Shown here: positions 1-28,454 of the stretch, in pieces | Layout: the number at the start of each line of letters is the position of its first letter | Numbering within the stretch: the stretch's first letter is position 1 | DNA from: Terriglobia bacterium | Lineage (GTDB): Bacteria; Acidobacteriota; Terriglobia; Terriglobales; Acidobacteriaceae | NCBI GenBank assembly: GCA_041493865.1 | Contig: JBGPZS010000001.1 | Coordinates: 1-29,514 of the forward strand | Length of the DNA stretch: 29,514 nt | Direction: 5' to 3' | Translations under genes and position numbers: made by a program | Notes under the pieces: model-generated | What the model saw: the letters and a program-made list of their open reading frames with translations, nothing else | The model's database searches: none | Told to the model about the DNA's origin: nothing

Positions 1-177
1 CTCAGGTCCTACGAAGTTGAATCATTTATTGCGGGCTGTACAGAACTACATGTGCTCGCAAGGCAACTGCAAGATCGGGACGGCTGGCATCCTCTATGCA
101 TTGATCCATTGGATTTGCTCGCCCGGCAGATTTCGAATTCGACTGCACTTTTACACAAGTCAGTCAGTTCTCTTTGA
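1..177 (+). CDS. Aspartate/glutamate racemase family protein, C-terminal fragment (runs off the left edge; absent from the ORF track)
   Basis: Frame 1 is open from base 1 to TGA at 175-177: LRSYEVESFIAGCTELHVLARQLQDRDGWHPLCIDPLDLLARQISNSTALLHKSVSSL. It has the (A/L)GCTE(L) second catalytic Cys motif and the downstream IDPLxxLA motif typical of these racemases. Confidence 0.7.
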   Translation, partial: LRSYEVESFIAGCTELHVLARQLQDRDGWHPLCIDPLDLLARQISNSTALLHKSVSSL

Positions 178-507
178 TATGACGATGCTGCAGGGCAGCG
201 ATTCTCAGCTATTAACAGCATTTCCTGAATTCTCACCCTGTGTTGAAAACGTTTCTGCTTCTAACTTCACTGAAGCAACGGCCAGCAAGTTACGGCTTTT
301 CAGGCGCCGAAGTGCTCTGGCCACCATGATCACAACTCCTCCTTTTACCTGGCGGTAACACCGGCTTACTCCCCTCTGTTAGGAATCTCAATTCTTCATC
401 GAACAGTTGGCGTTTCTATTTATCACTCCTAAGTCCCCCGCTGAAGACTCATTCTTGGAGTGAATCCGTCACGTTTGTATGTTGATTACTGCGTCATCCC
501 TCTTGAG

Positions 508-529
508 AAAAAAAGGGGGCTGATCCCCC
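508..529 (-). terminator. Rho-independent terminator-like hairpin on the minus strand
   Basis: Minus strand reads GGGGG-ATCAG-CCCCC-TTTTTTT: a 5-bp G:C stem, a 5-nt loop and a 7-U tail. Confidence 0.45.
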
Positions 530-900
530 ACAATCCCGCCCCCTGCACCCACTTGATAAATTTTGGTACCAGACACCGCTGGCAACTCCCCTCGAAGGGC
601 TTTGCGATCGGACTTGTTAGTGGAACCACCGTACAATAAATTACAATGAATTCGGCATTGTGCGCGTTGCTAGCATTCTAGGCACTGTGTTGTTTGATAC
701 GCTTGGATCCGCATCATTTAACTCCATCTTCCAGAGATCCAACCTGGGAATGGCAAACCGCACGCTCCTGACTTTTTCAGCGGCTTGACATTGACTTGCA
801 GCTCCTCTGATGCTGGCTCGCGCAGGTCTTGCTACTCTAGTACGGGCGGCGTTCAGCACAGCGCCCAACTCGATGACGAATCCAGAGGAACTAACTCCCC

Positions 901-1695
901 ATGATGACGAGTAGTCGCGCAGGCAATTCCGGCCCGAGTTGGTTTGAGCACCTGTCCCTGGCCAGCATACCGTCGCTCCGGTTGTTTTGCTTTCCATACG
1001 CAGGAGGAAGTTCGGAGATATACCGAAGTTGGCAGCGATGGTTCCCTGAGCAGATTGACATCTGTCTGGTTCATTTGCCGGGCCGCGGAAAGCGCATGAA
1101 GGAACAGGCATTTACCCGGCTCATAGCCCTGGTGAATGCGATTGCGGATCGCATGCATCGCGAAACGAATGTCCCCTATGCTCTATATGGACACAGCATG
1201 GGCGCCCTCATAAGCTTCGAACTGGGCCGGGAGCTTTTTCGCAGGCACGGCACAGGACCGAAGCACCTGTTCGTATCGGGCCATTGCGCTCCTCAGTGGC
1301 CGAGAAATGACCCGGCGACATTCAATCTTCCTCCTGACAAATTTGCCGCAGAACTGAAAAAGCTCAACGGCACTCCTAAGGAAATACTCGAAGAGCCTGA
1401 ATTGTTGGAACTGTTCATCCGCCCTCTTAGGGCAGATTTCGAAATTGTCGATACCTATGAGTACCATCCCGGAGAGCTGCTGTCATGTCCCATTACGGTA
1501 TACGGGGGACTCCGTGACGCAAGTGTTCCCGTAGAAAGTTGCCGTGCGTGGCAGGAACAAAGCTCTGCTGGGTGCAAGGTAAGGATGTTGAGCGGAGACC
1601 ACTTCTTCATTCGCGATCCGGAATTGGAGTTTATGAATGCGTTCCGAAACGACATATTAAGCGCTGTTCCCGCTTCACGCGCGCAGGAAGTTTGA
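901..1695 (+). CDS. Type II (editing) thioesterase of NRPS/PKS clusters (GrsT/RifR-like)
   Basis: RLFCFPYAGG, VHLPGRGKR, nucleophile motif YGHSMG, LRADF (acid) and GDHFF (His), forming the standard TEII triad. Confidence 0.95.
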   Translation: MMTSSRAGNSGPSWFEHLSLASIPSLRLFCFPYAGGSSEIYRSWQRWFPEQIDICLVHLPGRGKRMKEQAFTRLIALVNAIADRMHRETNVPYALYGHSMGALISFELGRELFRRHGTGPKHLFVSGHCAPQWPRNDPATFNLPPDKFAAELKKLNGTPKEILEEPELLELFIRPLRADFEIVDTYEYHPGELLSCPITVYGGLRDASVPVESCRAWQEQSSAGCKVRMLSGDHFFIRDPELEFMNAFRNDILSAVPASRAQEV

Positions 1696-2079
1696 CCATT
1701 GGTTTGGCACCCACCATGCCGAGGCCACTTTCCGCAGGCACCGTTTCACATCTGGCAGATCGACGTTGCCATGCCTTTAAACCGGACCCAAATTTGCCGC
1801 AGGTTTTTTTCTTATGGATGAAAATGGGTGTGCCGATCGTTTCTGTTTTGACGGGGATAGGGCCGTTTCATCACTGCTCGCGTGGCCATGAGGACCATTC
1901 TCGTCCAATACCTGAATATTGTGCCGGTAGAAGTTACCTTCTCCTATGAGGCAAAAGACGCCCCAGGGTCTGTGCTATTCTTGCAGTTCAGGCGCATGCC
2001 TGGAGTAAAATAACCCTTCTCGGAAGATTCAAATCGTTCCGACACGCGTTACCATAACGTCTTTTTCCAGGGAGTTAGT

Positions 2080-4017
2080 ATGTCGACCGCGCCAATTGTC
2101 GAATCATTTCAATTTCAGGCTGAAACTGCACAGCTTCTTAACTTGATGATCCATTCTCTCTATACCCAAAGAGAGATATTTCTGCGGGAGCTGATCTCGA
2201 ATGCGTCGGATGCGTTGGACAGACTGCGATTTGAAGCCTTGACCAATCCCGGACTGGTCAAAGACGGGCACAACTATGAGATTCGCCTGAAGCCGGACGC
2301 GGCAGCGCGGACCTTGACCATCAGCGATACGGGGATCGGTATGAGCCGCCAGGAGCTTATGGAACATATCGGGACGATTGCCCGGTCCGGAACACGGGAA
2401 CTGAGCAAACGAATGAAAGAATCTCAGACCGCACCAGCCTTTGGCGACTTAATTGGACAATTCGGAGTTGGTTTTTATTCCGCATTCATGGTGGCGGAAA
2501 AGGTAACCATCCTGACCCGCCGTGCGGGTGAGCCGGGCGCCAGCCAGTGGGAATCCACCGGAGATGGCACCTATACGCTCATGGATGCGCAAAAGGCAAG
2601 TTACGGAACTGACATCATTCTCCATCTCAAGGAAGTTGATGCTGAAAAAGGCATTGAAGACTATACCGATCGCTGGAAACTCTCCATGATTGTCCACAGG
2701 TATTCTGATTTCATTGCCTATCCCATCATCTATGAAGGTCCGCCGCAGGAACCAGGCGAGACAGAGGGAGAAGCCAAAGAAATCAAGATCGAAACCAAGA
2801 CGTTGAACTCAATGAAGCCGATCTGGACGCGCAGCCGGTCGGAGGTCAGCGAAAGCGATTACAACGACTTCTATAAACACCTTTCCAATGACTGGACAAA
2901 TCCGCTTAAAGTATTGTCACTCAAAGCCGAGGGGACTGTGGAATATGAAGCGCTGCTGTTCATCCCTTCGCAAGCTCCTTATGATCTTTTTTACCATGGT
3001 AGCGAAAGCGGCCTCAGGCTATACGCAAAGCGGGTGATGGTCATGGAAAAATGTGAGGACTTGCTGCCCAGGCATCTTCGCTTCATCAAGGGAGTGGTGG
3101 ACTCCAGCGACTTGCCGCTCAATATTTCCCGTCAGCGACTGCAGCAGGACCGGCATATAACCCAGATCCGTAAATGGCTGACCCGTAAAATACTGGATTC
3201 GCTCACCGAAATGCGGGAGCAGGAGGCGGAGAAATACCAGAAGTTCTGGGGTGATTTCGGGAGGGCGTTGAAGGAAGGTGTCAGCTCTGATTATGAAAAT
3301 AAAGAAAAGCTGCTTCCGCTGCTGTTGTTCGAATCCTCGCATGATCCTAAGGAGCTGACTGCTCTCAAGGCCTATATGGAAAGAATGAAGCCGGAGCAAA
3401 CCGAGATCCTGTATCTGACCGGCGAATCGCGCAAGGTCATCGAAAACTCTCCCCACCTTGAGGCGTCGAAACAGAAAGGGTATGAGGTGCTCTATCTCAG
3501 CGATCCGGTGGATGAATTGCTGGTCCAGCATCTCCACGAGTTTGAAGGAAAACGTCTGAAATCCTTAACCAAGGGCCAAGTCCACCTGGGAACGGAAGAA
3601 GAGAAAAAACAGCTCGAAGAGCAGGTCAAGAAGAAAGAAGAGGAATTCGTAAACTTCCTCAAGGCCTGCCAGAAAAAAATGGATGAATACGTGAAGCAGA
3701 TCCGGCTGTCAACGCGTCTGGTCGATTCGCCTGCCTGCTTGGTCACGGAGGAGCATGAGTACAGCCCGCATCTGGAGCGGCTGCTGCAAAAAGGCAAGGG
3801 CAGCGGTCCGAAACAGCGACGCATCATGGAACTAAATTCTGGCCATCCCATCATCGCGCGTATGTACGATCGCTACAATGCGAATAGTGAGGATCCGGCT
3901 GTCGTTGACTCGATTGAACTCCTGTTCGAACTGGCGCTGATTGCCGAGGGCTCCGAGATTGTTGATCCCGTGCGGCTGAATCAACTCACTCTGGGGCTAT
4001 TGCAGAAGACGTTATAG
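2080..4017 (+). CDS. htpG: Molecular chaperone HtpG (Hsp90), full length, 645 aa
   Basis: FQFQAETAQLLNLMIHSLY, IFLRELISNASDALD, SDTGIGM, GTIARSGT, IGQFGVGFYSAF, FIKGVVDSSDLPLNISR. SD-like GGGAG upstream. Confidence 0.97.
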   Translation: MSTAPIVESFQFQAETAQLLNLMIHSLYTQREIFLRELISNASDALDRLRFEALTNPGLVKDGHNYEIRLKPDAAARTLTISDTGIGMSRQELMEHIGTIARSGTRELSKRMKESQTAPAFGDLIGQFGVGFYSAFMVAEKVTILTRRAGEPGASQWESTGDGTYTLMDAQKASYGTDIILHLKEVDAEKGIEDYTDRWKLSMIVHRYSDFIAYPIIYEGPPQEPGETEGEAKEIKIETKTLNSMKPIWTRSRSEVSESDYNDFYKHLSNDWTNPLKVLSLKAEGTVEYEALLFIPSQAPYDLFYHGSESGLRLYAKRVMVMEKCEDLLPRHLRFIKGVVDSSDLPLNISRQRLQQDRHITQIRKWLTRKILDSLTEMREQEAEKYQKFWGDFGRALKEGVSSDYENKEKLLPLLLFESSHDPKELTALKAYMERMKPEQTEILYLTGESRKVIENSPHLEASKQKGYEVLYLSDPVDELLVQHLHEFEGKRLKSLTKGQVHLGTEEEKKQLEEQVKKKEEEFVNFLKACQKKMDEYVKQIRLSTRLVDSPACLVTEEHEYSPHLERLLQKGKGSGPKQRRIMELNSGHPIIARMYDRYNANSEDPAVVDSIELLFELALIAEGSEIVDPVRLNQLTLGLLQKTL

Positions 4018-4133
4018 AATTTCTGGCTATGCTCGGCAGCGATAGGCAATTTCACCGTGAGGCAAAAAAAACCATTTGTAACGCAACGTAGTGGATCGGC
4101 GGCCGAAAATTAAACTCTCTTGGAGAAGCTGAT

Positions 4134-4352
4134 ATGACGAACGATAGCGAGGATAAGACAATTTACAAAGTCGTGCTAAATCATGAGGAACAATACTCAA
4201 TTTGGCCTGCGCACCGGGAGAATGCATTGGGATGGAGAGACGCAGGGAAGAGCGGCACAAAAGAAGAATGCTTGGCTTACATCAAAGAAGTCTGGACGGA
4301 CATGCGGCCGCTGAGCCTGAGAAAAAAAATGCAGGAGCAGGGCCTGAGCTGA
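4134..4352 (+). CDS. mbtH: MbtH-like protein (adenylation-domain activator/chaperone)
   Basis: [39 protein letters not shown], with all three conserved Trp. GGAG SD upstream. Confidence 0.97.
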
Positions 4353-4693
4353 ATTAGTTGACGATCACAAGGCAGCCGTCGACACCTCACATACAATTGA
4401 GCCCATCCATGCATGAAATGCAAGCGTGAGGCACTGTCACAGGTGGTAGGAGAGTCCCGCGCCGGATGTCTCTGGTCATCCGTCACAATGCCCGCTGGAA
4501 TCCCTTGATTCGCGTTGCGCATTTCGTCTGTCCCACTGTTCCGGAAATCATCGAGGTTTGGGCTCCACCATCTCCCGCAAAATCTCATATTGATCCATGA
4601 TCCGGGGCCGGTTTTCCCTATGGTCATATGTACTGTGTCCAGTGTTCCTGCATCCAATTTGTTATTCTAAATTTAGAGTTTCTGGAGGTTTTG

Positions 4694-5044
4694 GTGCTTA
4701 ACAAAGCGGGTAAAATGGCGCTGGCAATCACTCTGATGGCGGGAATGCTGTTTCTCGCGGGATGCCCCACGCAAACCAGCGTTGCCGATGTCAGTAAAGA
4801 TCCCGGCCGTTTTGCCGGCAAAGATGTAAGCATTCACGGGACCGTGTCTGACTCGTTTGGCGCGCTCGGCAACGGCGTCTTCCAGATTGATGACGGCACC
4901 GGACGCATGTGGGTTTACAGCCAGAATTTTGGTGTGCCGGGCAATGGCAACAAGGTCGCAGTCACCGGTCGCATTGAGCAGGGCTTTGCTTTTGGCGGTC
5001 GCACCTTCGGTGTAATTCTGCGCCAGACAGAAGCCCGGCATTGA
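4694..5044 (+). CDS. Small lipoprotein with a predicted OB-fold
   Basis: GTG start at 4694 after GGAGG. Hydrophobic signal ends in the lipobox LAGC. The mature part (VSIHGTVSDSF..FQIDDGTGRMWV..VAVTGRI) matches the OB-fold pattern 'F.l.DgTG.i.V'. Confidence 0.7.
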   Translation: MLNKAGKMALAITLMAGMLFLAGCPTQTSVADVSKDPGRFAGKDVSIHGTVSDSFGALGNGVFQIDDGTGRMWVYSQNFGVPGNGNKVAVTGRIEQGFAFGGRTFGVILRQTEARH

Positions 5045-5213: not shown

Positions 5214-5732
5214 ATGCCGGTTTCACTCAACAATTCCGGAGTGGTGTATCAGGCGCTTAAAAAATGCGGCATCGGACTGGTGTCGGCGCTGCCTGAAACC
5301 TGGCTGGTGCACCTGATCCGCATGGCGGAAGACGACCCGCAGATGATCCTGGTGCGGCTGGCCAAAGAGGAAGAAGGCGTTGGCATCTCCGCGGGTGCGC
5401 ATTTTGCCGGCGTGAAATCCGCCATGCTCATGCAGAACCACGGCTTTCTGGCCAGCATTAACGGCATCGTTTCTTTCGCCCAGCTCTACCGTATTCCTTT
5501 GCTGATGGTCATTTCCTATCGCGGCCACTTTGGCGAGCGCGATCCCTGGCAAACGCAGGGTGGCGGTGCCACAGAACCGCTGCTACGCGCCCTGGGGATC
5601 CCCTACTCATTTCTTGACGATCCCGCGAAGGTGGAAAAGCGCATTGCAGAGGTGCAAACCTGGGCGTATGCCAGCCTGCATCCTGCTGCACTGTTGCTCA
5701 CGCGCGAACTCATGTGGGAGGAGCCCGCATGA
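5214..5732 (+). CDS. comD: ThDP-dependent decarboxylase alpha subunit (sulfopyruvate decarboxylase ComD-like, PYR domain)
   Basis: YQALKKCGI..LPETW, KEEEGVGISAGAHFAG (catalytic Glu region), LMQNHGFLASING, PLLMVISYRG. Start placed at ATG 5214; TGA overlaps the next ATG (ATGA). Confidence 0.8.
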   Translation: MPVSLNNSGVVYQALKKCGIGLVSALPETWLVHLIRMAEDDPQMILVRLAKEEEGVGISAGAHFAGVKSAMLMQNHGFLASINGIVSFAQLYRIPLLMVISYRGHFGERDPWQTQGGGATEPLLRALGIPYSFLDDPAKVEKRIAEVQTWAYASLHPAALLLTRELMWEEPA

Positions 5733-6331
5733 TGCAGCGCCTGGAATGCTTGCGCGCGATCTATGACCGCCTCGAGAGCTGCCTGGTGGTGACCATCATG
5801 GGCGCCGTTGCGACTGAGCTGCAATCGCTCGGGCACAAGCCGAATTTTTTCTACCTCCAGCACGCCATGGGCCTGGGCTCTTCCACCGGGCTTGGTTTGG
5901 CGCTCTGCCTGCCGCGTGAAAAAGTTGTGGTCTTTGATGGTGATGGCTCTATCCTGATGAACCTTGGTGGATACACCACGCTCGCGCGCTATCGTCCCCG
6001 GAACCTGGTGCATGTGGTCTTTGACAATGAGAGCCTGCTCTCGGTAGGAGGATTTCCCACGGCGACTTCCACCGGCAGCGATCTGGAAGGTGTAGCGCGC
6101 GCCTCCGGCATCGCGCGCACCAAGACCGTCACCACGATGGAGGAGTTTACGCATGCCTTTGACGATGCCATGCGCGCCAACGAGCTCACGTCCATCGTTG
6201 CAAAGGTCGAAGCAGTTGGGCCGAAAGGGTACGTGACCGAGCTGTCATTGCTGGAGAACCGGTTTCAGTTCAAGCGGTATATAGAAAAATCCACCACGGA
6301 GACACGGAGGCACGGAGAAAAAGGAAGCTAA
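5729..6331 (+). CDS. comE: ThDP-dependent decarboxylase beta subunit (ComE-like, PP domain)
   Basis: AMGLGSSTGLGLAL, ThDP-binding motif FDGDGSILMNLG...VFDN. Translationally coupled to the alpha gene (ATGA at 5729-5732). Confidence 0.8.
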   Translation: MMQRLECLRAIYDRLESCLVVTIMGAVATELQSLGHKPNFFYLQHAMGLGSSTGLGLALCLPREKVVVFDGDGSILMNLGGYTTLARYRPRNLVHVVFDNESLLSVGGFPTATSTGSDLEGVARASGIARTKTVTTMEEFTHAFDDAMRANELTSIVAKVEAVGPKGYVTELSLLENRFQFKRYIEKSTTETRRHGEKGS

Positions 6332-6449
6332 GGTCGGGAGAAAGCTGCTTCCGTGTTTCTTCCCTGCGCTGCCAGAACATCTTCGAAGTTTCGCGTCGCT
6401 TTTCTGATCCTGCAATTTCTCCGTGTCTCCGTGCCTCCGTGGTGGATTT
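6287..6449. repeat. REP/MITE-like inverted repeat pair (34-bp arms built from CACGGAG units)
   Basis: Left arm 6287-6320 AAATCCACCACGGAGACACGGAGGCACGGAGAAA. The right arm 6416-6449 is its reverse complement with 2 mismatches. The spacer is ~95 bp. Confidence 0.85.
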
Positions 6450-6473
6450 GCTTTTTTCGAGAGGAGTCAATCC

Positions 6474-7256
6474 ATGTCACAGATCCTCGCTGAACTCATC
6501 ACCCAACTCAACAGCGGCGCGCTACGTGTGGTCGATCTCACGCAGCCGCTGAGCCCGCAGACGCCGTTATTGCCGCTGCCAACGCAATGGCCGAACACGC
6601 CGGCGTTCAAGATCTGGGAGCTTTCCCACTATGACGATCGTGGCCCGGCGTGGTACTGGAACGGTTTTGAGACCGGCGAACACACGGGCACGCATTTTGA
6701 CGCGCCGATTCACTGGGTCAGCGGCAAAGACTTGCCGGAGAACAGCGTCGACAAAATCAATCCCAAGAAATTTGTTGGCCCGGCCTGCGTGATTGACGTC
6801 ACCACCGACGTGGTTCGCGACCCCGATTTCCTGCTTACCGTTGACCGCGTGAAACAGTGGGAGAGCCAGCACGGGCGCATTCCCGCGGGCGCGTGGATGC
6901 TGCTCCGTACTGGCTGGTCCAGTCGCACCGATCCGAAGCAATACATCAACCTGCAGGACGATGGACCGCATACGCCCGGCTTTGTAAAGGCATGCTCTGA
7001 TTTCCTGGCTAAAGAGCGAGACGTTCTCGGAGTTGGCGTTGAGACGGTTGGCACCGACGCTGGACGCGCCTCGACCTTCGATCCGCCCTTTCCGAACCAC
7101 TATGTGATGCACGGCAGCGGCAAGTTTGGACTGGCTGGGTTGTGCAACCTTGACCAGTTGCCGCCGACGGGCGCAGTGGTTATTGCCGCGCCGCTGAAGA
7201 TTGTGAATGGTTCGGGCAGCCCGCTGCGCGCGATTGCGATCACGCCTGTTTTGTAA
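6474..7256 (+). CDS. Cyclase-family metal-dependent hydrolase, isatin hydrolase/kynurenine formamidase type
   Basis: GAGGAG SD then ATG 6474. GEHTGTHFDAP (HxGTHxDxP) metal motif, DPDFLLT, GPHTPG, GTDAG, PPFP.H, APLKIVNGSGSPLRA. The overall pattern is what I recall for isatin hydrolases. Confidence 0.85.
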   Translation: MSQILAELITQLNSGALRVVDLTQPLSPQTPLLPLPTQWPNTPAFKIWELSHYDDRGPAWYWNGFETGEHTGTHFDAPIHWVSGKDLPENSVDKINPKKFVGPACVIDVTTDVVRDPDFLLTVDRVKQWESQHGRIPAGAWMLLRTGWSSRTDPKQYINLQDDGPHTPGFVKACSDFLAKERDVLGVGVETVGTDAGRASTFDPPFPNHYVMHGSGKFGLAGLCNLDQLPPTGAVVIAAPLKIVNGSGSPLRAIAITPVL

Positions 7257-7257
7257 T

Positions 7258-7440
7258 CCCGAGCGCAGCGAGGGAACCTATAGAGACCAGAATCTGCGGG
7301 CTTACATAGGATGTCGTTCGGCCGTTATTGGTGAAATGGAAATCTAATGGCCACAAGTGGCGCTGGTTTGCGGCCTCGTGGTTATAAGGATCCCTCGCTT
7401 TGCTCGGGCAGAAAGAACTTCTCTGTGTCTCCGTGGTGAA
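7258..7440. repeat. Second REP-like inverted repeat pair plus a partial copy of the CACGGAG family
   Basis: 7258-7279 CCCGAGCGCAGCGAGGGAACCT versus 7387-7408 AGGATCCCTCGCTTTGCTCGGG (22-bp arms, 3 mismatches). 7421-7440 CTCTGTGTCTCCGTGGTGAA resembles the 6416-6449 arm. Confidence 0.75.
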
Positions 7441-16023: not shown

Positions 16024-17385
16024 TTACCAGGTCTTGCGCAGCGGATGCGCTTCCGTGTTGAAGACCACTTTGCTCAGATCAAGAGTTTCTCGCGGCGCAA
16101 ACAGCAGATAGAGGTACTTGAGCGTCTCCGCCAGATAGTAACTCTCCATGCTATCTTTCTTTGCCTTGGTTTCAACGTCGCTGAGCGCGGCGTAGCCAGC
16201 GTCAGTCTTGCAGTAACGCACCAGGCTGAGAATGAACGTGGAACCCATCTCCTGGTAGCGCGGATCTTTGGTGAAGTATTCTAGGTAATACGCTGACTCG
16301 ATGATCTCCGGGCGAAGCTGATATCCGGGTGAGGTGATCTTCATGGTCTGGTAGTCGAGCGCTTCCGGCTCAATGCCAAAGGTCGTCCACATCTTATAGG
16401 ACGATTCCTGCAGCCGCCGCGCGCGGTCCAGGTCGCCCGACCGCGCCAGCACCGCGGGAAAGAACGCATCCAGCGCGCCATATTGCGTGGAGAGCCGCTT
16501 GCCGGTGTTCATATCAGCCTGCCCGTACCACAGGCCGCTTTTCGTGTTGTCGGCCAGATATTTGTTCACGGCCTTCACACTGGCTTCCCACATCTTTTTG
16601 CAGTCCTTGTCGTCAAACAGCAGCCACGATTTCAGCAGGTATTCGTAATAAGAATCTATGCCGCCGCCGATGTGGCTGGTGGTATCAATCCATTTGCCGG
16701 TTTCAACATTGATGGTGGAGCCGACCAGTCCAATGGCGGAGCGCCGGCTGTAGAGTTCCACCACAGCGCGCTTGGCCTTCTCATAGTAGATCGGCTTGCC
16801 GGAAAGTTTGCTGAGCGTGCCGAATTCGAGCAGCAGCGTGCCGATCTCGGCGGGATTGCTCTCCATGCCGCGGGTCTTGCCCGTCTTGAGATTCACGTAC
16901 ATGTAAGGCATGCCGGTGGGCGAATTGAAGACAGGCAGCAGGCGGTTGCCCAGATTGTCGGCCAGATTCAGCAGGCGCTCATCACCGCTGAGCTGGTAGC
17001 TGCTCAACAATCCGCCCAGCAGCCGGATGGTGATTTCAAAATTCTTGACCTCAATGTCCTGGTCAAAAGATAGATTTTTGGCGATGAATTCCCGCGTCTT
17101 GTTGGCTTCATCGGTCAGCCCCATCATGATCATCGTGTCCAGAGCATCCACAGGCGTCATCAGGAGCGTGCCGCTATGCCATTCGCGATAGCCTTTGCTC
17201 AGCGGCTTGAGTTCGTCATGCCCCCAGGCGTATTGCTTGTAGGCGTTCCAGGCATAGAGAAATTCGCCCCGGACCTGCAAAGCCATGGGGCCGGGAGAAG
17301 GGACTTGCGGCGTTTGTGCCAATAAGAAACCAGGCACGGCGACGACCATGCCGATGAAAGCGGCGATCGAGAACCATCTGCGCAT
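16024..17385 (-). CDS. Glycoside hydrolase family 47 (class I alpha-1,2-mannosidase), secreted
   Basis: Signal peptide MRRWFSIAA...LLA, AWNAYKQYAWGHDELKP, FEITIRLLGGLLS, AEIGTLLLEF, GIDSYYEYLLK, LRPEIIES, MESYYLAETLKYLYLLF, FNTEAHP. Confidence 0.93.
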   Translation of the reverse strand: MRRWFSIAAFIGMVVAVPGFLLAQTPQVPSPGPMALQVRGEFLYAWNAYKQYAWGHDELKPLSKGYREWHSGTLLMTPVDALDTMIMMGLTDEANKTREFIAKNLSFDQDIEVKNFEITIRLLGGLLSSYQLSGDERLLNLADNLGNRLLPVFNSPTGMPYMYVNLKTGKTRGMESNPAEIGTLLLEFGTLSKLSGKPIYYEKAKRAVVELYSRRSAIGLVGSTINVETGKWIDTTSHIGGGIDSYYEYLLKSWLLFDDKDCKKMWEASVKAVNKYLADNTKSGLWYGQADMNTGKRLSTQYGALDAFFPAVLARSGDLDRARRLQESSYKMWTTFGIEPEALDYQTMKITSPGYQLRPEIIESAYYLEYFTKDPRYQEMGSTFILSLVRYCKTDAGYAALSDVETKAKKDSMESYYLAETLKYLYLLFAPRETLDLSKVVFNTEAHPLRKTW

Positions 17386-17486
17386 GAAGCAAAGTCTCCC
17401 ATGGGATTTGGGTAGAATCGCATCCATTATCGCAGACAGAGAAGTGATCTTGCGCAAGGAAGAGCGTGCGATCGATGGGCGCCGAG

Positions 17487-23899: not shown

Positions 23900-25060
23900 T
23901 TAATACGAGCGCGGCAGGCCGAGCACATGTTCGGCGATATAAGCAAGTATCAGATTGGTGGAAACGGGCGCAACCTGGTAGAGCCTTGTCTCGCGAAACT
24001 TGCGCTCGATATCGTATTCTTCCGCAAAGCCGAACCCACCGTGGGTCTGGACCGCGGCGTTGGCGGACTCCCAGGAAGCGTCCGCCGCCAGCAGCTTGGC
24101 CATGTTGGCCTGGGCGCCACAGGGTTGATGCGCGTCAAACAACGCGGCGGCCTGCGCCACCATGAGTGACGCGGCTTCCACGTTGGCGTAAGCACGGGCC
24201 AGCGGGAACTGAACACCCTGGTTCTGTCCGATGGGCCTGCCGAATACGACGCGTCCCTTCGCGTAATGGCAGGCGCGCTCCAGGAACCAGCGGCCGTCGC
24301 CAACGCACTCAGCGGCAATCAGGATGCGCTCAGCGTTCAGGCCGTCAAGCAGATAGCGGAAGCCCTGGCCTTCTTCGCCGACCAGATTCTCCGCCGGCAC
24401 TTCCACATCATCAAGGAAGATTTCCGTGGTGGCATGGTTCATCATGGTGCGGATGGGGCGAATCGTCAGCCCCGGCGCATGACGAAGGTCCACTAGCAGA
24501 ACGGAGAGCCCTTCACTGCGCTTCTTGACCTGCTCCAGTGGCGTTGTGCGCGCCACCAGCAGCATCAGGTCAGAATGCTCCGCGCGCGAAATCCAAATCT
24601 TCTGTCCTTTTACCACGTACTTATCACCGGTGCGGCGAGCGAAGGTCTTCATTTGGGTGGTGTCTGAGCCGGTGGTTGGTTCGCTTACGCCGAAGGCCTG
24701 TAGACGAAGTTCGCCCCGGGCCAGCGCGGGCAGGTATTTTTTCTGCTGCTCCTCTGAGCCATGGCGCAGCAGCGTTCCCATGATGTACATCTGGGCATGG
24801 CAGGCAGAGGCATTGCCGCCCGAGCGATGAATCGCTTCCAGAATGAGTGCGGCTTCGGTCACGCCCAGCCCCGCACCTCCATGTTCTTCAGGGATGAGTG
24901 TGGCCATGTACCCGGCCCTGGTGAGCGCCTGGACAAAGTCTTCTGGATAAGCGCGTTTGCTGTCCAGTTCACGCCAGTAGGCGTCAGGAAAGTCGCGGCA
25001 CAGTTCGCCGACGGCGTTCTTCAGTTGCTGGTGCAAGCCGGCGTTGGTGGTGGATGACAT
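23900..25060 (-). CDS. Acyl-CoA dehydrogenase
   Basis: LIPEEHGGAGLG, HAQMYIMG.LLRHGSEEQ, VSEPTTGSDT, GQKIWIS, GLNAERILIAAECVG, GGFGFAEEYDIERKFRETRLYQVAP. Confidence 0.95.
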   Translation of the reverse strand: MSSTTNAGLHQQLKNAVGELCRDFPDAYWRELDSKRAYPEDFVQALTRAGYMATLIPEEHGGAGLGVTEAALILEAIHRSGGNASACHAQMYIMGTLLRHGSEEQQKKYLPALARGELRLQAFGVSEPTTGSDTTQMKTFARRTGDKYVVKGQKIWISRAEHSDLMLLVARTTPLEQVKKRSEGLSVLLVDLRHAPGLTIRPIRTMMNHATTEIFLDDVEVPAENLVGEEGQGFRYLLDGLNAERILIAAECVGDGRWFLERACHYAKGRVVFGRPIGQNQGVQFPLARAYANVEAASLMVAQAAALFDAHQPCGAQANMAKLLAADASWESANAAVQTHGGFGFAEEYDIERKFRETRLYQVAPVSTNLILAYIAEHVLGLPRSY

Positions 25061-25077
25061 GGAGGACCGTTATTAGC

Positions 25078-25149
25078 CGCGAATGCACGCGAATCAATAC
25101 GAACCACCTGGGGTGTTCTTCCATTCGCGTTCTTTCGCGTTGATTCGTG
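25078..25149. repeat. Imperfect inverted repeat made of ~10-bp CGCGAATNNA units (third REP-like family)
   Basis: Left CGCGAATGCACGCGAATCAATACGAA (25078-25103). The reverse complement of the right arm (25123-25149) is CACGAATCAACGCGAAAGAACGCGAAT. Confidence 0.65.
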
Positions 25150-25239
25150 CTGAACGGTTCAGCTGCCCCGGTCAGCGGGCACCCGTTGTTCAGAACGGCG
25201 TATTCTAATCCCGTTGCATCAGCGCGGCAACAGGACGCT

Positions 25240-26055
25240 TTACGCCTTCAGCGCAAAAGGGCGTATCGGCGATCCGGTTGCGCCGCGAATCTTCAAGGGC
25301 GAGGCGACGAACACGAATTCGTAAACGCGGCCGGCCGCCAGCTGTTCCAGGTTAAGACATTCGATGATGTGAATCCCGCTCTCCACCAGCAGATGCACAT
25401 GCGCGGGCATGGTCCGCGAAGGCGCCAGCTCAAAATTGATGGTGTCCGCGCCGGCGGCAAAGACCCCTTTGCCGCTCAGCCAGCGCGCTCCCTGCTCGGC
25501 GGGACCGGGGCCGTGCATCTGCGACTCAAACCGCGCTGCGTCTTCAAAGAATGCACCCCACCCAGTCCGCAACAGGACGACATCGCCGGGCTTGATTTCG
25601 ACGGCTTGGGCGTGCGCGGCGGTCTCCATGTGTTCGGGCGCGATCTCAAATTCTGCGGGCAGGCTCGCGACATTCAGTTGTCCAGCAATATCCAGCAGCA
25701 CGCCTCGCCGCACCATGGGCGAGAGCGTGTCGACCGAAAGCTGGGTCATTCCTCCGCTGTATGACTGTGCAGTCTCTACCTCATGCCCGCCATGCAGCTT
25801 GCCGCCGCAGGAGAAGTGGCACAAGGCGTCAATGTGCGTCCCGAGATGTCCGCCCAGCGCCAGTCCCTCGGAAGCGGAGCTGCCGCCGTTCGGCATAACG
25901 TAATCCCCGTGCATCTTGGTCAGGCTGAACAAAAACGGCGGATGGACCGGGTGATGCGGCATGCCAACAAAATACGGCTGTGCCAGGTCATAAACCTTCG
26001 CGCTGTTGAGCAGTGCCAGCAGTGACTGAGTTTTTGTTCCCATAGCATCCGCCAT
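25240..26055 (-). CDS. Cyclase-family metal-dependent hydrolase (second, divergent copy)
   Basis: VYDLAQPY, GGHLGTHIDALCH, RRGVLLDI, VLLRTGW, GADT..FE, H..LLVESGIHIIE, PLKIRGATGSPIRP. Confidence 0.88.
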   Translation of the reverse strand: MADAMGTKTQSLLALLNSAKVYDLAQPYFVGMPHHPVHPPFLFSLTKMHGDYVMPNGGSSASEGLALGGHLGTHIDALCHFSCGGKLHGGHEVETAQSYSGGMTQLSVDTLSPMVRRGVLLDIAGQLNVASLPAEFEIAPEHMETAAHAQAVEIKPGDVVLLRTGWGAFFEDAARFESQMHGPGPAEQGARWLSGKGVFAAGADTINFELAPSRTMPAHVHLLVESGIHIIECLNLEQLAAGRVYEFVFVASPLKIRGATGSPIRPFALKA

Positions 26056-26087
26056 TGTTTCTAAGCAAGCCTTCCAAGCAACGGCTT

Positions 26088-27005
26088 CTACAGCAAGCCT
26101 GTCTTCTTCGCTATTGCCAGCTTCTTGCGCTCGATGGGCAGGCTCGCGGCGTCCACCATCTCATCTTTGTAGACCACCACGCCCAGTCCGGAGTCAGCGT
26201 CAGCTTTCTCGTAAAGCTCAATGATCTCCCGCGCGCGCGTGATTTCTTCCAGCGAAGGTGTGAAGATACGGTTGATCGCTGGAACCTGCCCGGGATGGAT
26301 GGCCCATTTGCCGTCAAAGCCCATCTGCGCGGCACAGCGCGCATCATGTTCGCATTGCTGCAAGTCGCGGAATTGCAGTGTGACGCCATCTACCACGTCA
26401 ATGCCGGCGGCCCGCGCGGCGGCCACTACCTTGGCTTTGGGATAGTGATAGAGCGCAAACTGCTCGCGCACCGGGTCGCGCGCTCCGATGTTGCCGGCAT
26501 AATCCACCACGCCAAAGATCAGCCCGGCCAGGCGCGGCGTGGAAGCAGCGATCTCTTCGGCGTGCAGCACGGCGTTGGCGCTCTCAATCAGCGCTTCCAG
26601 CCGGATTCGTCCCACCGGCAGGCCAACGTTCAGCTCAATCTGGGTAAGCAAGCGGTCGGCGAAAAGCACATCGGCCGCGTCCTGGACTTTGGGCAGCACC
26701 ACCACGTCAATCCTGCTGCCTGTAGCCTCCACCACCTCAATCACGTCGCGATAGAAAAACTTTGTGTGAATGCCGTTGGGCCGGAAGGCGCGGATCTTGC
26801 CGCGAAAATCAAGCGTGGTGAACGCTTCAATCAACGTATTTCGCGCGGGCACTTTTTGTGACGGGGCGCAGCCATCCTCCAGGTCAAAAACGACCTCGTC
26901 AGCCTCGCTGGCGGCGGCCTTGGCCATCATCTTGAGCGAATGCGCGGGACAGGCAAGCTCGCTGCGGCGCACCGTGATCGTCGCTTCATGCTGGGGAGCC
27001 GGCAT
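26088..27005 (-). CDS. citE: HpcH/HpaI aldolase/citrate lyase beta family acyl-CoA lyase (CitE/malyl-CoA/citramalyl-CoA lyase-like)
   Basis: RRSELACP, ADEVVFDLEDG, VVLPKV, ALIESA, LIFG..DY, GFDGKWAIHPGQV. AAGGAG SD. Confidence 0.88.
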   Translation of the reverse strand: MPAPQHEATITVRRSELACPAHSLKMMAKAAASEADEVVFDLEDGCAPSQKVPARNTLIEAFTTLDFRGKIRAFRPNGIHTKFFYRDVIEVVEATGSRIDVVVLPKVQDAADVLFADRLLTQIELNVGLPVGRIRLEALIESANAVLHAEEIAASTPRLAGLIFGVVDYAGNIGARDPVREQFALYHYPKAKVVAAARAAGIDVVDGVTLQFRDLQQCEHDARCAAQMGFDGKWAIHPGQVPAINRIFTPSLEEITRAREIIELYEKADADSGLGVVVYKDEMVDAASLPIERKKLAIAKKTGLL

Positions 27006-27044
27006 CAGACGCTCCTTCCTTCTCCATTGAGCCCGAGCAACAAA

Positions 27045-28454
27045 TTATTGCTCACCGAACGATTTGATGAATTCATAATAGAAATCCACGCCATCATAAA
27101 AATCTTTCACGCCGATGCGCTCGTCTTTGCCGTGAGCGCGCGTATCGTCCACATCTTCAAACACGCCGGGGACACCGTAGGCGGGAATGCCGGCGATGCG
27201 CAGGTATTTGCCGTCGCTGGCGCCTGTGTCCATCACCGGGACGATCGGCAGACCACCGTAAAATTTGCCGCTGAGCGTTTCCAACCTGCGTACGATCGCC
27301 GGATTGATCGCAGACGAGGGCGCGGGCACCGCCTCACCCACCACGCTCACCATGATTCGATCATCTGCCAGCACGCGCTTCAGCGTGTTCTGGACGTTCT
27401 GCAGCGAATCCTGTGGAAGCATGCGGCAGTTTACGATTGCTGCCGTGGTCTGCGGCAACGCGTTGTTGGCGTGCCCGCCCTCAAGGCGCGTGGCCACGCA
27501 CGTGGTGCGGAGAAGAGCGTTGAAGTAAGGTGACTCTGACAGTCGTTTGGCTGCTACTTCCGCTTTCGCGTGGTCAGTGCCAATCAGCGCACGAAAATCA
27601 GCCGCTGTCGCCGGAGATTCGAGAGCGGCGGTCCGTTCGAAGTATCCGCGCGTGGTTTCGTTCAGGCCCACGGGAAAATCAAACGCGGCCAGGCGCGACA
27701 GACCCTGGGAGAGATGGTAGATGGCGTTGTCTTTCACCGGTCGCGAGCTGTGCCCGCCGTTGCTCTTTACTTCCAGGCGGAAATCGACGTAATTCTTTTC
27801 GCTGGTCTGCATGCCCAGTAGAAGACGTTTGGCTTTCTTGGTTTCGAAGTTGCCGGCGTCAGTGTTGATGCAATATTCGGCATCGATCAGCTCGCGATGG
27901 TTCTTGATCAACCACTGTATACCGTTGGATTCGCCGCCCTCTTCGTCCGCTGTCAGGGCAAGGACCAGATCACGCGCGTGCGTCCAGCCTTCTTTCTTGA
28001 GGCGGAGAAAGTTGGCGACCAGCAGCGTGTCGCCCTGTTTGATGTCTGAGGTGCCACGGCCGTAAAAGAAGCCATTAACCTCATTGAACTTGAAGGGGTC
28101 CATGGACCAGTCCTGGCGCAGCGCTTCAACCACATCAAGGTGGCCGATGAACAGGATGGGTTTTTCCCTACCGCTTCCGCGCAGGCGGACGACGAGGTTT
28201 TTCTTGTTGGGCAGCGGCCCAAGCACATGGACATCTTCCGCAGCGAAGCCGGCGGCGCGAAAGCGCGCAGCCATGGCCTCCGCCGCGGTGGTCACGTTGC
28301 CGGCAGGAGTATCCGTGGTATTGATTTCAATGAGTTCTTTAAAAATGTCGCGGGCGGTCTGGTGTTCCGGAGAAAGGCTGCTTTGCTGGGCCCGGGCCCG
28401 CACGGCCGGCAGAAGCGCAAAAACGCATGTGAGCACAAAATTAATTGTTTTCAT
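27045..28454 (-). CDS. M20/M25/M40 family metallo-hydrolase, secreted
   Basis: Signal peptide, ELIEINT, FIGHLDVV, YGRGTSDIK, TADEEGG, GGHSS.P, GGHANNALP, HGKDERI. Confidence 0.92.
   Translation of the reverse strand: MKTINFVLTCVFALLPAVRARAQQSSLSPEHQTARDIFKELIEINTTDTPAGNVTTAAEAMAARFRAAGFAAEDVHVLGPLPNKKNLVVRLRGSGREKPILFIGHLDVVEALRQDWSMDPFKFNEVNGFFYGRGTSDIKQGDTLLVANFLRLKKEGWTHARDLVLALTADEEGGESNGIQWLIKNHRELIDAEYCINTDAGNFETKKAKRLLLGMQTSEKNYVDFRLEVKSNGGHSSRPVKDNAIYHLSQGLSRLAAFDFPVGLNETTRGYFERTAALESPATAADFRALIGTDHAKAEVAAKRLSESPYFNALLRTTCVATRLEGGHANNALPQTTAAIVNCRMLPQDSLQNVQNTLKRVLADDRIMVSVVGEAVPAPSSAINPAIVRRLETLSGKFYGGLPIVPVMDTGASDGKYLRIAGIPAYGVPGVFEDVDDTRAHGKDERIGVKDFYDGVDFYYEFIKSFGEQ

Follow-up and report, generated by a model that had tools for sequence, protein, structure and literature searches.

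We identified a three-gene unit in a soil Acidobacterium that, judging from its sequence, probably converts isatin to isatinate, then to 2-aminobenzaldehyde and on toward anthranilate. It encodes a ComDE-like pair predicted to form a split ThDP decarboxylase, followed by an isatin hydrolase orthologue. We put the chance that the missing isatinate decarboxylase is this ComDE-like pair at about even. The minimal split ThDP fold would then have a new substrate class, the aryl-glyoxylates, and in evolution the pair would be interchangeable both with IorAB/IadAB and with an enzyme of the full-length ThDP type. It is small and easily expressed, and it offers a concrete candidate for the step after isatinate.

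Gene content of the unit

The window is the whole 29,514-nt stretch of DNA that was analyzed, and positions are counted from its first nucleotide. The genome it comes from was 68.6% complete. The unit contained the following features.

5214 to 5732, plus strand: comD-like alpha subunit, the pyrimidine-binding (PYR) half of the predicted split ThDP decarboxylase, 172 aa
5729 to 6331, plus strand: comE-like beta subunit, the diphosphate-binding (PP) half, 200 aa, ATGA-coupled to the comD-like gene
6287 to 6449, no strand: dispersed palindromic repeat (REP/MITE-like) between comE and the hydrolase gene, supplying the last comE codons
6474 to 7256, plus strand: isatin hydrolase orthologue of the cyclase family, a predicted Mn-dependent cyclic amidohydrolase, 260 aa

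The ATGA at 5729 to 5732 contains the comD-like stop and the comE-like start. The ATG at 5214 is where comD-like homology begins in 56 related loci. An earlier note on this DNA had described the coupled genes and a cyclase following on the same strand, and all of these coordinates and strands were confirmed. Its picture is corrected between the comE-like gene and the cyclase, where the dispersed palindromic repeat takes up the 142-bp gap. The two 34-nt arms of the element show 94% complementarity and are separated by 95 nt, and the 17-mer core of the repeat occurs in 16 copies genome-wide (0 for the reversed control). In relatives such as L015, L022, and L059, the matched comE-to-hydrolase stretches are only ~16 to 26 bp apart. 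A GGAG lies ~7 nt 5' of the hydrolase ATG. The promoter and terminator scan returned nothing exceeding the shuffled background.

The hydrolase and the ThDP pair

The cyclase at 6474 to 7256 matched PF04199 with 136 bits. It aligned over its full length with the solved isatin hydrolases 5NMP, 5NNA/5NNB, and 4J0N (E values of 3e-92 to 3e-76). The isatin hydrolase likeness proposed in the earlier note is a close homology, and every motif quoted there was found in the protein. KynB (kynurenine formamidase) was rejected as an identity. The protein scored 33.2 bits against TIGR03035 (cut-off, 223) and contains Ala221 at the second-metal Glu position of the I(L/I)E motif. By homology, the cyclase is closely related to the characterized isatin hydrolases and not to KynB.

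The hydrolase contains all of the metal, proton-relay, and aromatic-pocket residues named for LaIHA (PMC6117287). The Mn ligands H70, H74, and D76 align with H69, H73, and D75 of LaIHA (HxGTHxDxPxH, a mononuclear His-His-Asp site). The relay residues H80, H209, and D195 align with His79, His207, and Asp193. The pocket residues W60-Y-W62, W81, and F206 match W59, W61, W80, and Y204, which stack on isatinate in LaIHA (PMC6117287). The aromatic pocket motif of isatin hydrolases is WxW or FxW from the swapped hairpin, together with Trp80 and Tyr204/Phe209. Both GEHTGTH(F/L)DAP(I/V)HW and WYW were present in 81/81 acidobacterial homologues. The signature G219-L220-A221-G222 is GLAG rather than the published GLAS or GLQC, placing Gly at the Ser/Cys position that gates the water channel. 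GLAG was found in 63 of the 81 homologues and GLAS in 18.

The outline of a lactam or amide hydrolase followed by a ThDP decarboxylase may be right for a related substrate, such as dioxindole or a substituted isatin; an aryl- or heteroaryl-glyoxylate other than isatinate, formed from tryptophan or kynurenine, is a further candidate. We consider this possible but unlikely. The GLAG variant fits such a substrate. So does the Variovorax cyclase IadI, which a 2025 preprint places downstream of C8H7NO2 (dioxindole-like) and calls a broad-specificity amidase (PMC12633357); the natural substrate of the hydrolase family may therefore not be isatin itself. Isatin is favored by the retained isatinate-stacking residues (W60, W62, W81, and F206) and by the close homology to enzymes assayed on isatin.

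The comD-like protein scored 133.3 bits against TIGR03845 (cut-off, 147.95) and 26.3 bits against PF02776 (TPP_enzyme_N; cut-off, 26.8). Its EEEGVG stretch bears the cofactor-activating Glu, and its closest solved chain was 9IZ3_A (E value of 9e-12). The comE-like protein scored 122.4 bits against TIGR03846 (cut-off, 221.5) and 59 bits against PF02775 (TPP_enzyme_C). It contains the ThDP motif G71-D72-G73 followed by D99-N100. Its closest solved structure was a putative phosphonopyruvate decarboxylase (split form, PDB 9IZ3/9IZ4; E value of 3e-17). Against TIGR03297, the pair scored 72 and 120 bits, the latter for the comE-like protein (cut-off, 312.5). The family search found the PYR and PP halves alone, without an FAD, CoA, or Fe-S module. 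These scores do not qualify the pair as an equivalog of either ComDE or phosphonopyruvate decarboxylase.

The comE-like clade was split with an SH-aLRT of 100 from a PGAP-named ComE, whose neighbors are DHPS/sulfolactate-type genes. H36, H45, V106, and F109 are fixed in the hydrolase-linked clade, at positions where the ComE clade has D, G, T, and Q. The last of these replaces Gln with Phe in the GGQ stretch. These differences may be linked to substrate choice.

A genuine sulfopyruvate or phosphonopyruvate decarboxylase beside a functionally unrelated hydrolase is the least probable reading we considered. It is favored by the pair's best family matches (TIGR03845, TIGR03846, and TIGR03297), by the nearest solved structure, and by the labels of many databases, including JGI, which names many close homologues "sulfopyruvate decarboxylase subunit beta." These matches all fall under curated cut-offs (133 versus 148, 122 versus 221.5, and 120 versus 312.5), and the clade stands apart from a PGAP-named ComE located among DHPS/sulfolactate-type genes. 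The earlier note had seen no coenzyme M or sulfolactate genes in the window. None were present among the main open reading frames, nor were other sulfonate genes or a member of the PEP mutase family, and the genome, 68.6% complete, yielded no Xsc above the cut-off. The near-perfect co-occurrence with the hydrolase and the IorAB-complementary distribution described below also argue against it.

Conserved linkage and alternative partners

The comD-comE-cyclase order was kept in ~58 of 80 acidobacterial loci, with flanking genes that vary between lineages. Since the flanks differ while the trio is kept, the arrangement is not due to chance. Of 201 acidobacterial genomes sampled evenly, 17 encode the hydrolase. 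The hydrolase-linked comE type was present in 16 of the 17 and was adjacent to the hydrolase in 15 of the 16 genomes with both, across at least six families, although these genomes are relatives and the counts overstate independence. The co-occurrence of comDE-like pairs with this cyclase, a point raised in the earlier note, is borne out. A comE that is 60% identical, from another assembly, overlaps a hydrolase that is 61% identical.

The linkage could also be inherited synteny with no common pathway, which we regard as very improbable. In its favor, a single phylum supplies most of the loci, and many belong to one genus-level group. Persistence of the trio despite flank turnover, the codivergence of comE and hydrolase to ~60% identity, and the recurrence of three ThDP enzyme types beside the hydrolase in three phyla speak against it.

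Some members of the wider comE clade are not linked to a hydrolase. None follows comE in P0132, P0186, or P0130, and the window's own genome encodes a second, paralogous pair (69%) adjoining a flavoprotein. The clade is thus not tied to one substrate, and these unlinked members lend some weight to a related substrate for the unit. For more distant comE representatives, contigs were mostly too short for gene context.

Loci of the Acidobacteriaceae type place the trio in divergent orientation to genes for two PLP enzymes and an amino acid permease, an arrangement that is also consistent with a related substrate. The upstream class V aminotransferase genes of these loci were considered as kynureninase, an identity that would have pointed to the kynurenine route. 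They matched TIGR01976 (cysteine desulfurase-like) with 520 bits and kynureninase with 57 bits (cut-off, 246), and the assignment was rejected.

Genomes with the hydrolase that lack comDE encode an IorAB-type ThDP/Fe-S oxidoreductase in its place. Among 13 hydrolase-bearing genomes searched for both partners, 8 contained comE only, 5 contained IorA only, and none contained both or neither. The Angelobacter relatives, which lack comDE, have the hydrolase in divergent orientation to IorA, IorB, and a PRK08255-type gene (1161 bits); the last is of the 2-aminobenzoyl-CoA monooxygenase/reductase type. Tsukamurella has the same hydrolase/IorAB layout. A full-length ThDP enzyme is overlapped by the hydrolase on two Deinococcus plasmids and in Rhodococcus erythropolis R138. 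In one Deinococcus, the hydrolase lies within a cluster encoding an aryl-CoA ligase, an acyl-CoA dehydrogenase, an enoyl-CoA hydratase, and the PRK08255-type protein. These contexts indicate the 2-aminobenzoyl-CoA pathway specifically, which favors isatin over a related substrate.

The window's own genome also encodes the PRK08255-type gene (C73, 7952 to 10237), 82% identical to the relative's copy. A 240-bp stretch before it was considered as a decayed IorA remnant. It matched only residues 22 to 96 of the IorA open reading frame, in which the IOR profile begins at residue 89. The stretch may therefore be conserved leader sequence, and the remnant reading was rejected. The comparison indicates that the PRK08255-type locus occurs with and without IorAB. 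An absence of aryl-CoA ligase from IorAB genomes, as in a ligase-free route, was also rejected. Two of three IorAB genomes hold a 73 to 77% orthologue near the PRK08255-type gene, so there is no clean complementarity between IorAB and the ligase. The orthologous ligase was not found in the 68.6%-complete window genome.

Proposed route and comparison with known systems

Bacterial breakdown of indole and auxin (IAA) repeatedly passes through isatin and isatinate. Isatin arises by oxidation of indole and auxin, and the three genes would work as a single unit for its catabolism or salvage. The Mn2+-dependent hydrolase would open the lactam ring of isatin, and the product would be the aryl 2-oxo acid isatinate (2-aminophenylglyoxylate). 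The two ComDE-like subunits would assemble into a split ThDP/Mg2+ decarboxylase. Ylide attack on the 2-oxo group of isatinate, loss of CO2, and protonation would give 2-aminobenzaldehyde, which an unlinked aldehyde dehydrogenase may oxidize to anthranilate. Anthranilate could then be used for tryptophan synthesis or channeled into the 2-aminobenzoyl-CoA pathway. We infer the identity of the two substrates, the release of an aldehyde, and the steps that follow it. The conversion of isatin to isatinate and 2-aminobenzaldehyde had been suggested in the earlier note. It now has computational support from the hydrolase homology, the sub-cut-off ComDE scores, the conserved linkage, and the alternative ThDP partners.

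The chemistry from isatin through isatinate to anthranilate has long been known, so the earlier note's description of the possible route as undescribed has to be narrowed. In the literature searched, it is the enzyme for the decarboxylation that lacks an assignment, and none was named for isatinate to anthranilate. Searches for isatinate decarboxylase, isatin with thiamine, and sulfopyruvate decarboxylase with isatin or anthranilate returned nothing relevant there. C8H7NO3 and C7H7NO were detected between the cyclase step and anthranilate, with no enzyme assigned to this stretch (PMC12633357). The formulas fit isatinate and 2-aminobenzaldehyde, names that do not appear in that preprint.

No aldehyde dehydrogenase, transporter, or regulator was linked in the window or conserved across the 80 loci, and the missing dehydrogenase leaves the fate of the reactive 2-aminobenzaldehyde unexplained. 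The pair may release no aldehyde at all, with the isatinate-derived carbanion entering carboligation or another ThDP reaction or with a further unlinked partner required. Carboligase side reactions are common in ThDP decarboxylases, free 2-aminobenzaldehyde readily self-condenses, and both facts fit this alternative, as does the missing dehydrogenase. It is nevertheless decidedly improbable. The pair consists only of a PYR and a PP half and lacks any FAD, CoA, or Fe-S module, the families nearest to it are simple nonoxidative decarboxylases, and C7H7NO was detected in an organism that uses the isatin route (PMC12633357).

If the proposed decarboxylation is correct, bacteria have solved the step that follows isatin hydrolase in at least three ways, with enzymes that are nonhomologous or distantly related. 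Soil Acidobacteria entries labeled "sulfopyruvate decarboxylase," numbering in the thousands, would be misnamed, and a widespread misannotation as a coenzyme M/sulfonate enzyme would be corrected. An aryl-aldehyde-forming ThDP catalyst of ~370 residues in total would be added to the biocatalysis toolbox. The IorAB-complementary distribution suggests a role for iadA and iadB, two unexplained genes that serve as markers for auxin degradation loci. Soil Terriglobia, an abundant and mostly uncultured group, commonly carry the unit, which therefore has a bearing on the removal of indole and auxin signals by soil communities.

The window hydrolase shares its Mn site, Asp-His-His relay, WxW swap motif, and Trp/Phe pocket with LaIHA and LaIHB from Labrenzia/Roseibium aggregata and RsIHA from Ralstonia solanacearum (PDB 5NNA/5NNB, 4J0N/4M8D, and 5NMP). 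Those enzymes carry GLAS or GLQC, whereas it carries GLAG. Its partner is a split ThDP decarboxylase, and the examined Roseibium copy, in an iad-like auxin locus, has none. The surroundings of that copy contain iad-type genes missing from the window.

The pair shares with ComD/ComE (TIGR03845/TIGR03846) the two-gene PYR/PP split, similar sizes, overlapping genes, the ThDP motif, and the lack of a middle domain. The comE-like protein is ~39% identical to Leisingera ComE. The context of ComDE is sulfonate or coenzyme M genes, and that of the window pair is an isatin hydrolase. Phosphonopyruvate decarboxylase (TIGR03297) provides the nearest solved structures, yet the family score is far short of the cut-off. 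The PEP mutase expected near that enzyme is absent from the window's annotated open reading frames.

Benzoylformate (phenylglyoxylate) decarboxylase of the mandelate pathway converts an aryl-glyoxylate to an aryl aldehyde with ThDP. It is a single chain of ~530 aa with three domains. The chemistry proposed for the window pair is the same, but the enzyme is split and has no three-domain chain. Similarity to the PP half is weak (NF005485, 21.8 bits; 7ORX, E value of 4e-5).

The iad loci of Variovorax, Achromobacter, and Bradyrhizobium encode the IadI cyclase with IadA/IadB, homologues of IorA/IorB. They share with the window the hydrolase family and a ThDP-dependent 2-oxo-acid enzyme. The window lacks their upstream genes for auxin oxidation and contains no IadCDE Rieske oxygenase, CoA ligase/thiolase/SDR, MarR regulator, or IadAB, whereas such genes surround the Roseibium hydrolase. 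It encodes a small, predicted nonoxidative decarboxylase in place of the IorAB-type partner. The end product of the iad loci is anthranilate, as proposed for the window route. The window pair would yield an aldehyde and not a CoA thioester.

The locus and its surroundings

The window spans the whole of contig C377 (29.5 kb), from a Terriglobales MAG that is of the Candidatus Angelobacter type and 68.6% complete. The earlier note had described comD-like and comE-like genes coupled by ATGA and followed on the same strand by a cyclase gene (5214-7256). This arrangement was confirmed at these coordinates.

5214-5732, + strand: ComD-like protein, 172 aa
5729-6331, + strand: ComE-like protein, 200 aa; its start codon and the comD stop share the sequence ATGA
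6474-7256, + strand: cyclase-family protein (the hydrolase), 260 aa; GGAG about 7 nt 5' of the ATG

The genes 5' of the trio encode a type II thioesterase, HtpG, and a small lipoprotein-like ORF. A BlaR1/BlaI pair lies 3' on the opposite strand. These flanking genes look unrelated to the trio. The thioesterase and htpG genes fall within a low-GC part of the window (1-5000, G+C about 0.50-0.53 versus 0.56-0.64 in 5000-29514), and the step lies at about 5 kb, just 5' of the comD-like gene.

The gap between comE and the cyclase gene is 142 bp. It is occupied by a palindromic element with 34-nt arms (6287-6449), which also encodes the C-terminal codons of ComE. Its 17-mer core has 16 copies in the genome, and the reversed control has none. 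In relatives that lack the element, about 16-26 bp separate the matched stretches of comE and hydrolase, or these overlap, so the trio was ancestrally a tight operon. Palindromic repeats flank the hydrolase gene on both sides (6287-6449 and 7258-7408), and a related 15-mer recurs at 7421-7435. They look like a REP/MITE-like family of the genus.

The window also contains a glycoside hydrolase family 47 (alpha-mannosidase) gene (16024-17457, - strand, 429 bits). This family is known mainly from eukaryotes. A second, distant cyclase-family gene, 29% identical to the hydrolase over residues 118-256, lies in a group at 23900-28454 that may be another amide-opening catabolic unit.

23900-25060, - strand: acyl-CoA dehydrogenase gene, on one side of the second cyclase gene
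25240-26055, - strand: second cyclase-family gene
26088-27005, - strand: HpcH/HpaI-type aldolase/lyase gene, on its other side
27045-28454, - strand: M20 peptidase gene of the same group

The hydrolase and its linkage to the comDE-like pair

The cyclase had been read as isatin-hydrolase-like, and its comparison with solved structures bears this out. It matches RsIHA (5NMP) at E 3e-92, LaIHA (5NNA/5NNB) at 2e-91, and LaIHB (4J0N) at 3e-76, near full length. Kynurenine formamidases match at E 1e-4 to 5e-6 only, and the KynB equivalog model scores 33 bits against a cut-off of 223. Residues were checked against the list of Sommer et al. 2018 (PMC6117287). The cyclase retains the Mn ligands (H70, H74, and D76), the relay residues (H80, H209, and D195), the WxW motif (W60-Y-W62), W81, and F206. 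It carries GLAG where published isatin hydrolases have GLQC or GLAS. GLAG is also the commoner form in the acidobacterial homologues (63 of 81), and the other 18 have GLAS. The change to GLAG seems a minor departure from the LaIHB type and not the mark of a different enzyme. The substrate of the predicted hydrolase is probably isatin or one of its very close analogues.

The linkage is conserved. The comD and comE genes lie directly 5' of the hydrolase gene on the same strand in about 58 of 80 fetched acidobacterial hydrolase loci. When all ORFs in these loci were clustered, only comD, comE, and the hydrolase were widely common, and the flanks varied by lineage. We sampled the phylum evenly with 201 genomes, each at least 85% complete. 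The hydrolase was present in 17, and 16 of these encode a comE of the window's type, adjacent on one strand in 15. In an 18th genome the only comE is 42% identical. At least six families contain carriers, and identity goes as low as 58% (hydrolase) and 64% (ComE). An unrelated assembly encodes a 60%-identical ComE overlapping a 61%-identical hydrolase with canonical GLAS. The hydrolase is patchy (1/16 genomes in the window's own family), and the trio is an accessory module, not housekeeping.

The ThDP pair and other partners of the hydrolase

The motifs expected of each subunit are present: EEEGVG in alpha (ComD-like), and G71-D72-G73 and D99-N100 in beta (ComE-like). Among family models, the pair scores best against sulfopyruvate decarboxylase (alpha 133 bits versus a cut-off of 148; beta 122 versus 221.5) and phosphonopyruvate decarboxylase (72 and 120 versus 312.5). 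Every score is below its curated cut-off. The closest solved chains are from 9IZ3, a putative split phosphonopyruvate decarboxylase (E 3e-17 and 9e-12). When 92 ComE-type sequences were placed in a tree (quick search, LG+G4), the window's protein belonged to a 47-row clade. An SH-aLRT of 100 separates this clade from the one that contains the Rhizobium and Deinococcus taeanensis types and a PGAP-named Leisingera ComE, whose gene has DHPS/sulfolactate-type neighbors. Hydrolase-linked sequences have H36, H45, V106, and F109 fixed where the ComE clade has D, G, T, and Q. These differences may be tied to substrate choice.

The window's genome (G000) also encodes a paralogous comDE-like pair (contig C149, 8835-9947; locus L106:5835-6948) with a 69%-identical beta subunit. 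A flavoprotein (FAD_binding_3, geranylgeranyl-reductase/QhpG-like) and an M2 (angiotensin-converting-enzyme-type) peptidase lie 3' of it, with no hydrolase. A similar 69% copy occurs in genome G004. These pairs suggest a second substrate for the comE clade.

Some 22 loci of the Angelobacter type have no comDE, and in these the hydrolase gene is divergent from three others, sometimes with an outer-membrane barrel gene interposed.

IorA-like gene: TPP_enzyme_C and 4Fe-4S
IorB-like gene: PRK08312, 680 bits
PRK08255 gene, 'salicylyl-CoA 5-hydroxylase/oxidoreductase': 1161 bits

The PRK08255 family includes 2-aminobenzoyl-CoA monooxygenase/reductase. This arrangement of IorAB, hydrolase, and PRK08255 recurs on a Tsukamurella plasmid. 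In three other cases, all on plasmids (Deinococcus psychrotolerans, Deinococcus sp. KNUC1210, and Rhodococcus erythropolis R138), the hydrolase gene overlaps that of a full-length ThDP enzyme of the 546-aa class. The D. psychrotolerans cluster also contains benzoate-CoA-ligase-type, acyl-CoA dehydrogenase, enoyl-CoA hydratase, RidA, and PRK08255-type genes. The hydrolase is therefore partnered by a ThDP-dependent 2-oxo-acid enzyme of three architectures in three phyla. These partnerships are often wired to the aminobenzoyl-CoA pathway.

We searched 13 hydrolase-bearing acidobacterial genomes for both partners. Eight have the comE type without IorA (G000, G004, G006-G010, and G140), five have IorA without comE (G001, G002, G003, G005, and G157), and none has both or neither. 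G157, the sole carrier without comE in the phylum sample, has a 61% IorA. G000, G004, and G006 have the barrel and PRK08255 locus, with the IorAB genes absent from the space that separates a conserved leader stretch from the PRK08255-type gene. These counts come from related genomes, several incomplete, and are suggestive rather than statistical proof.

In G000 the barrel and PRK08255-type genes are back to back (contig C73, 4497-10237). Just 240 bp lie between them, and this sequence is homologous to the 5' part of relatives' IorA ORF. Sister genomes have IorAB and the hydrolase at the equivalent locus.

On a D. taeanensis plasmid (L083; NZ_CP083457, 307396-316668), a split ThDP pair is flanked by genes for an MmgE/PrpD protein and for the lactamase PxpA. 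Its beta subunit (52% identity over 60% of length) falls across the tree's basal split from the window's protein. Acyl-CoA dehydrogenase, CaiB-type CoA transferase, MaoC dehydratase, and aldehyde dehydrogenase genes lie 3'. Here too, a lactam hydrolase is paired with a split ThDP enzyme.

Predicted pathway and known systems

The best description of the unit pairs an isatin hydrolase with a predicted isatinate decarboxylase of split ComDE-like fold. The hydrolase would open isatin, and the ThDP pair would then decarboxylate isatinate. All the comparative evidence gathered points to the isatin route that the earlier note had proposed. The full mechanism, through 2-aminobenzaldehyde to anthranilate, is somewhat favored on this basis.

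The PRK08255-type gene of G000 (82% identity) is at the end of C73. In a sister comDE genome it is followed 3' by MarR, enoyl-CoA hydratase, acyl-CoA dehydrogenase, RidA, and AMP-forming ligase genes; no orthologue of the ligase was found in the incomplete G000. An aldehyde dehydrogenase gene was found neither linked to the trio in the window nor conserved across the 80 fetched loci, which is the main gap in the proposed pathway.

It is established that the degradation of indole and IAA passes through isatin, isatinate, and anthranilate (PMC6221969, PMC8383072, PMC9613470). In the Variovorax iad pathway, C8H7NO3 (not N-formylanthranilate) and C7H7NO accumulate between the IadI step and anthranilate, a stretch given no enzyme in that 2025 preprint (PMC12633357). 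The formulas fit isatinate and 2-aminobenzaldehyde; this identification is ours, not the paper's. No isatinate decarboxylase was found in the literature searched; one may have been assigned in a subscription journal. In the passages available from PMC9613470, iad loci likewise pair a cyclase (IadI) with IorA/IorB homologues (iadA and iadB), which are termed exclusive markers of these loci and are given no stated function there.
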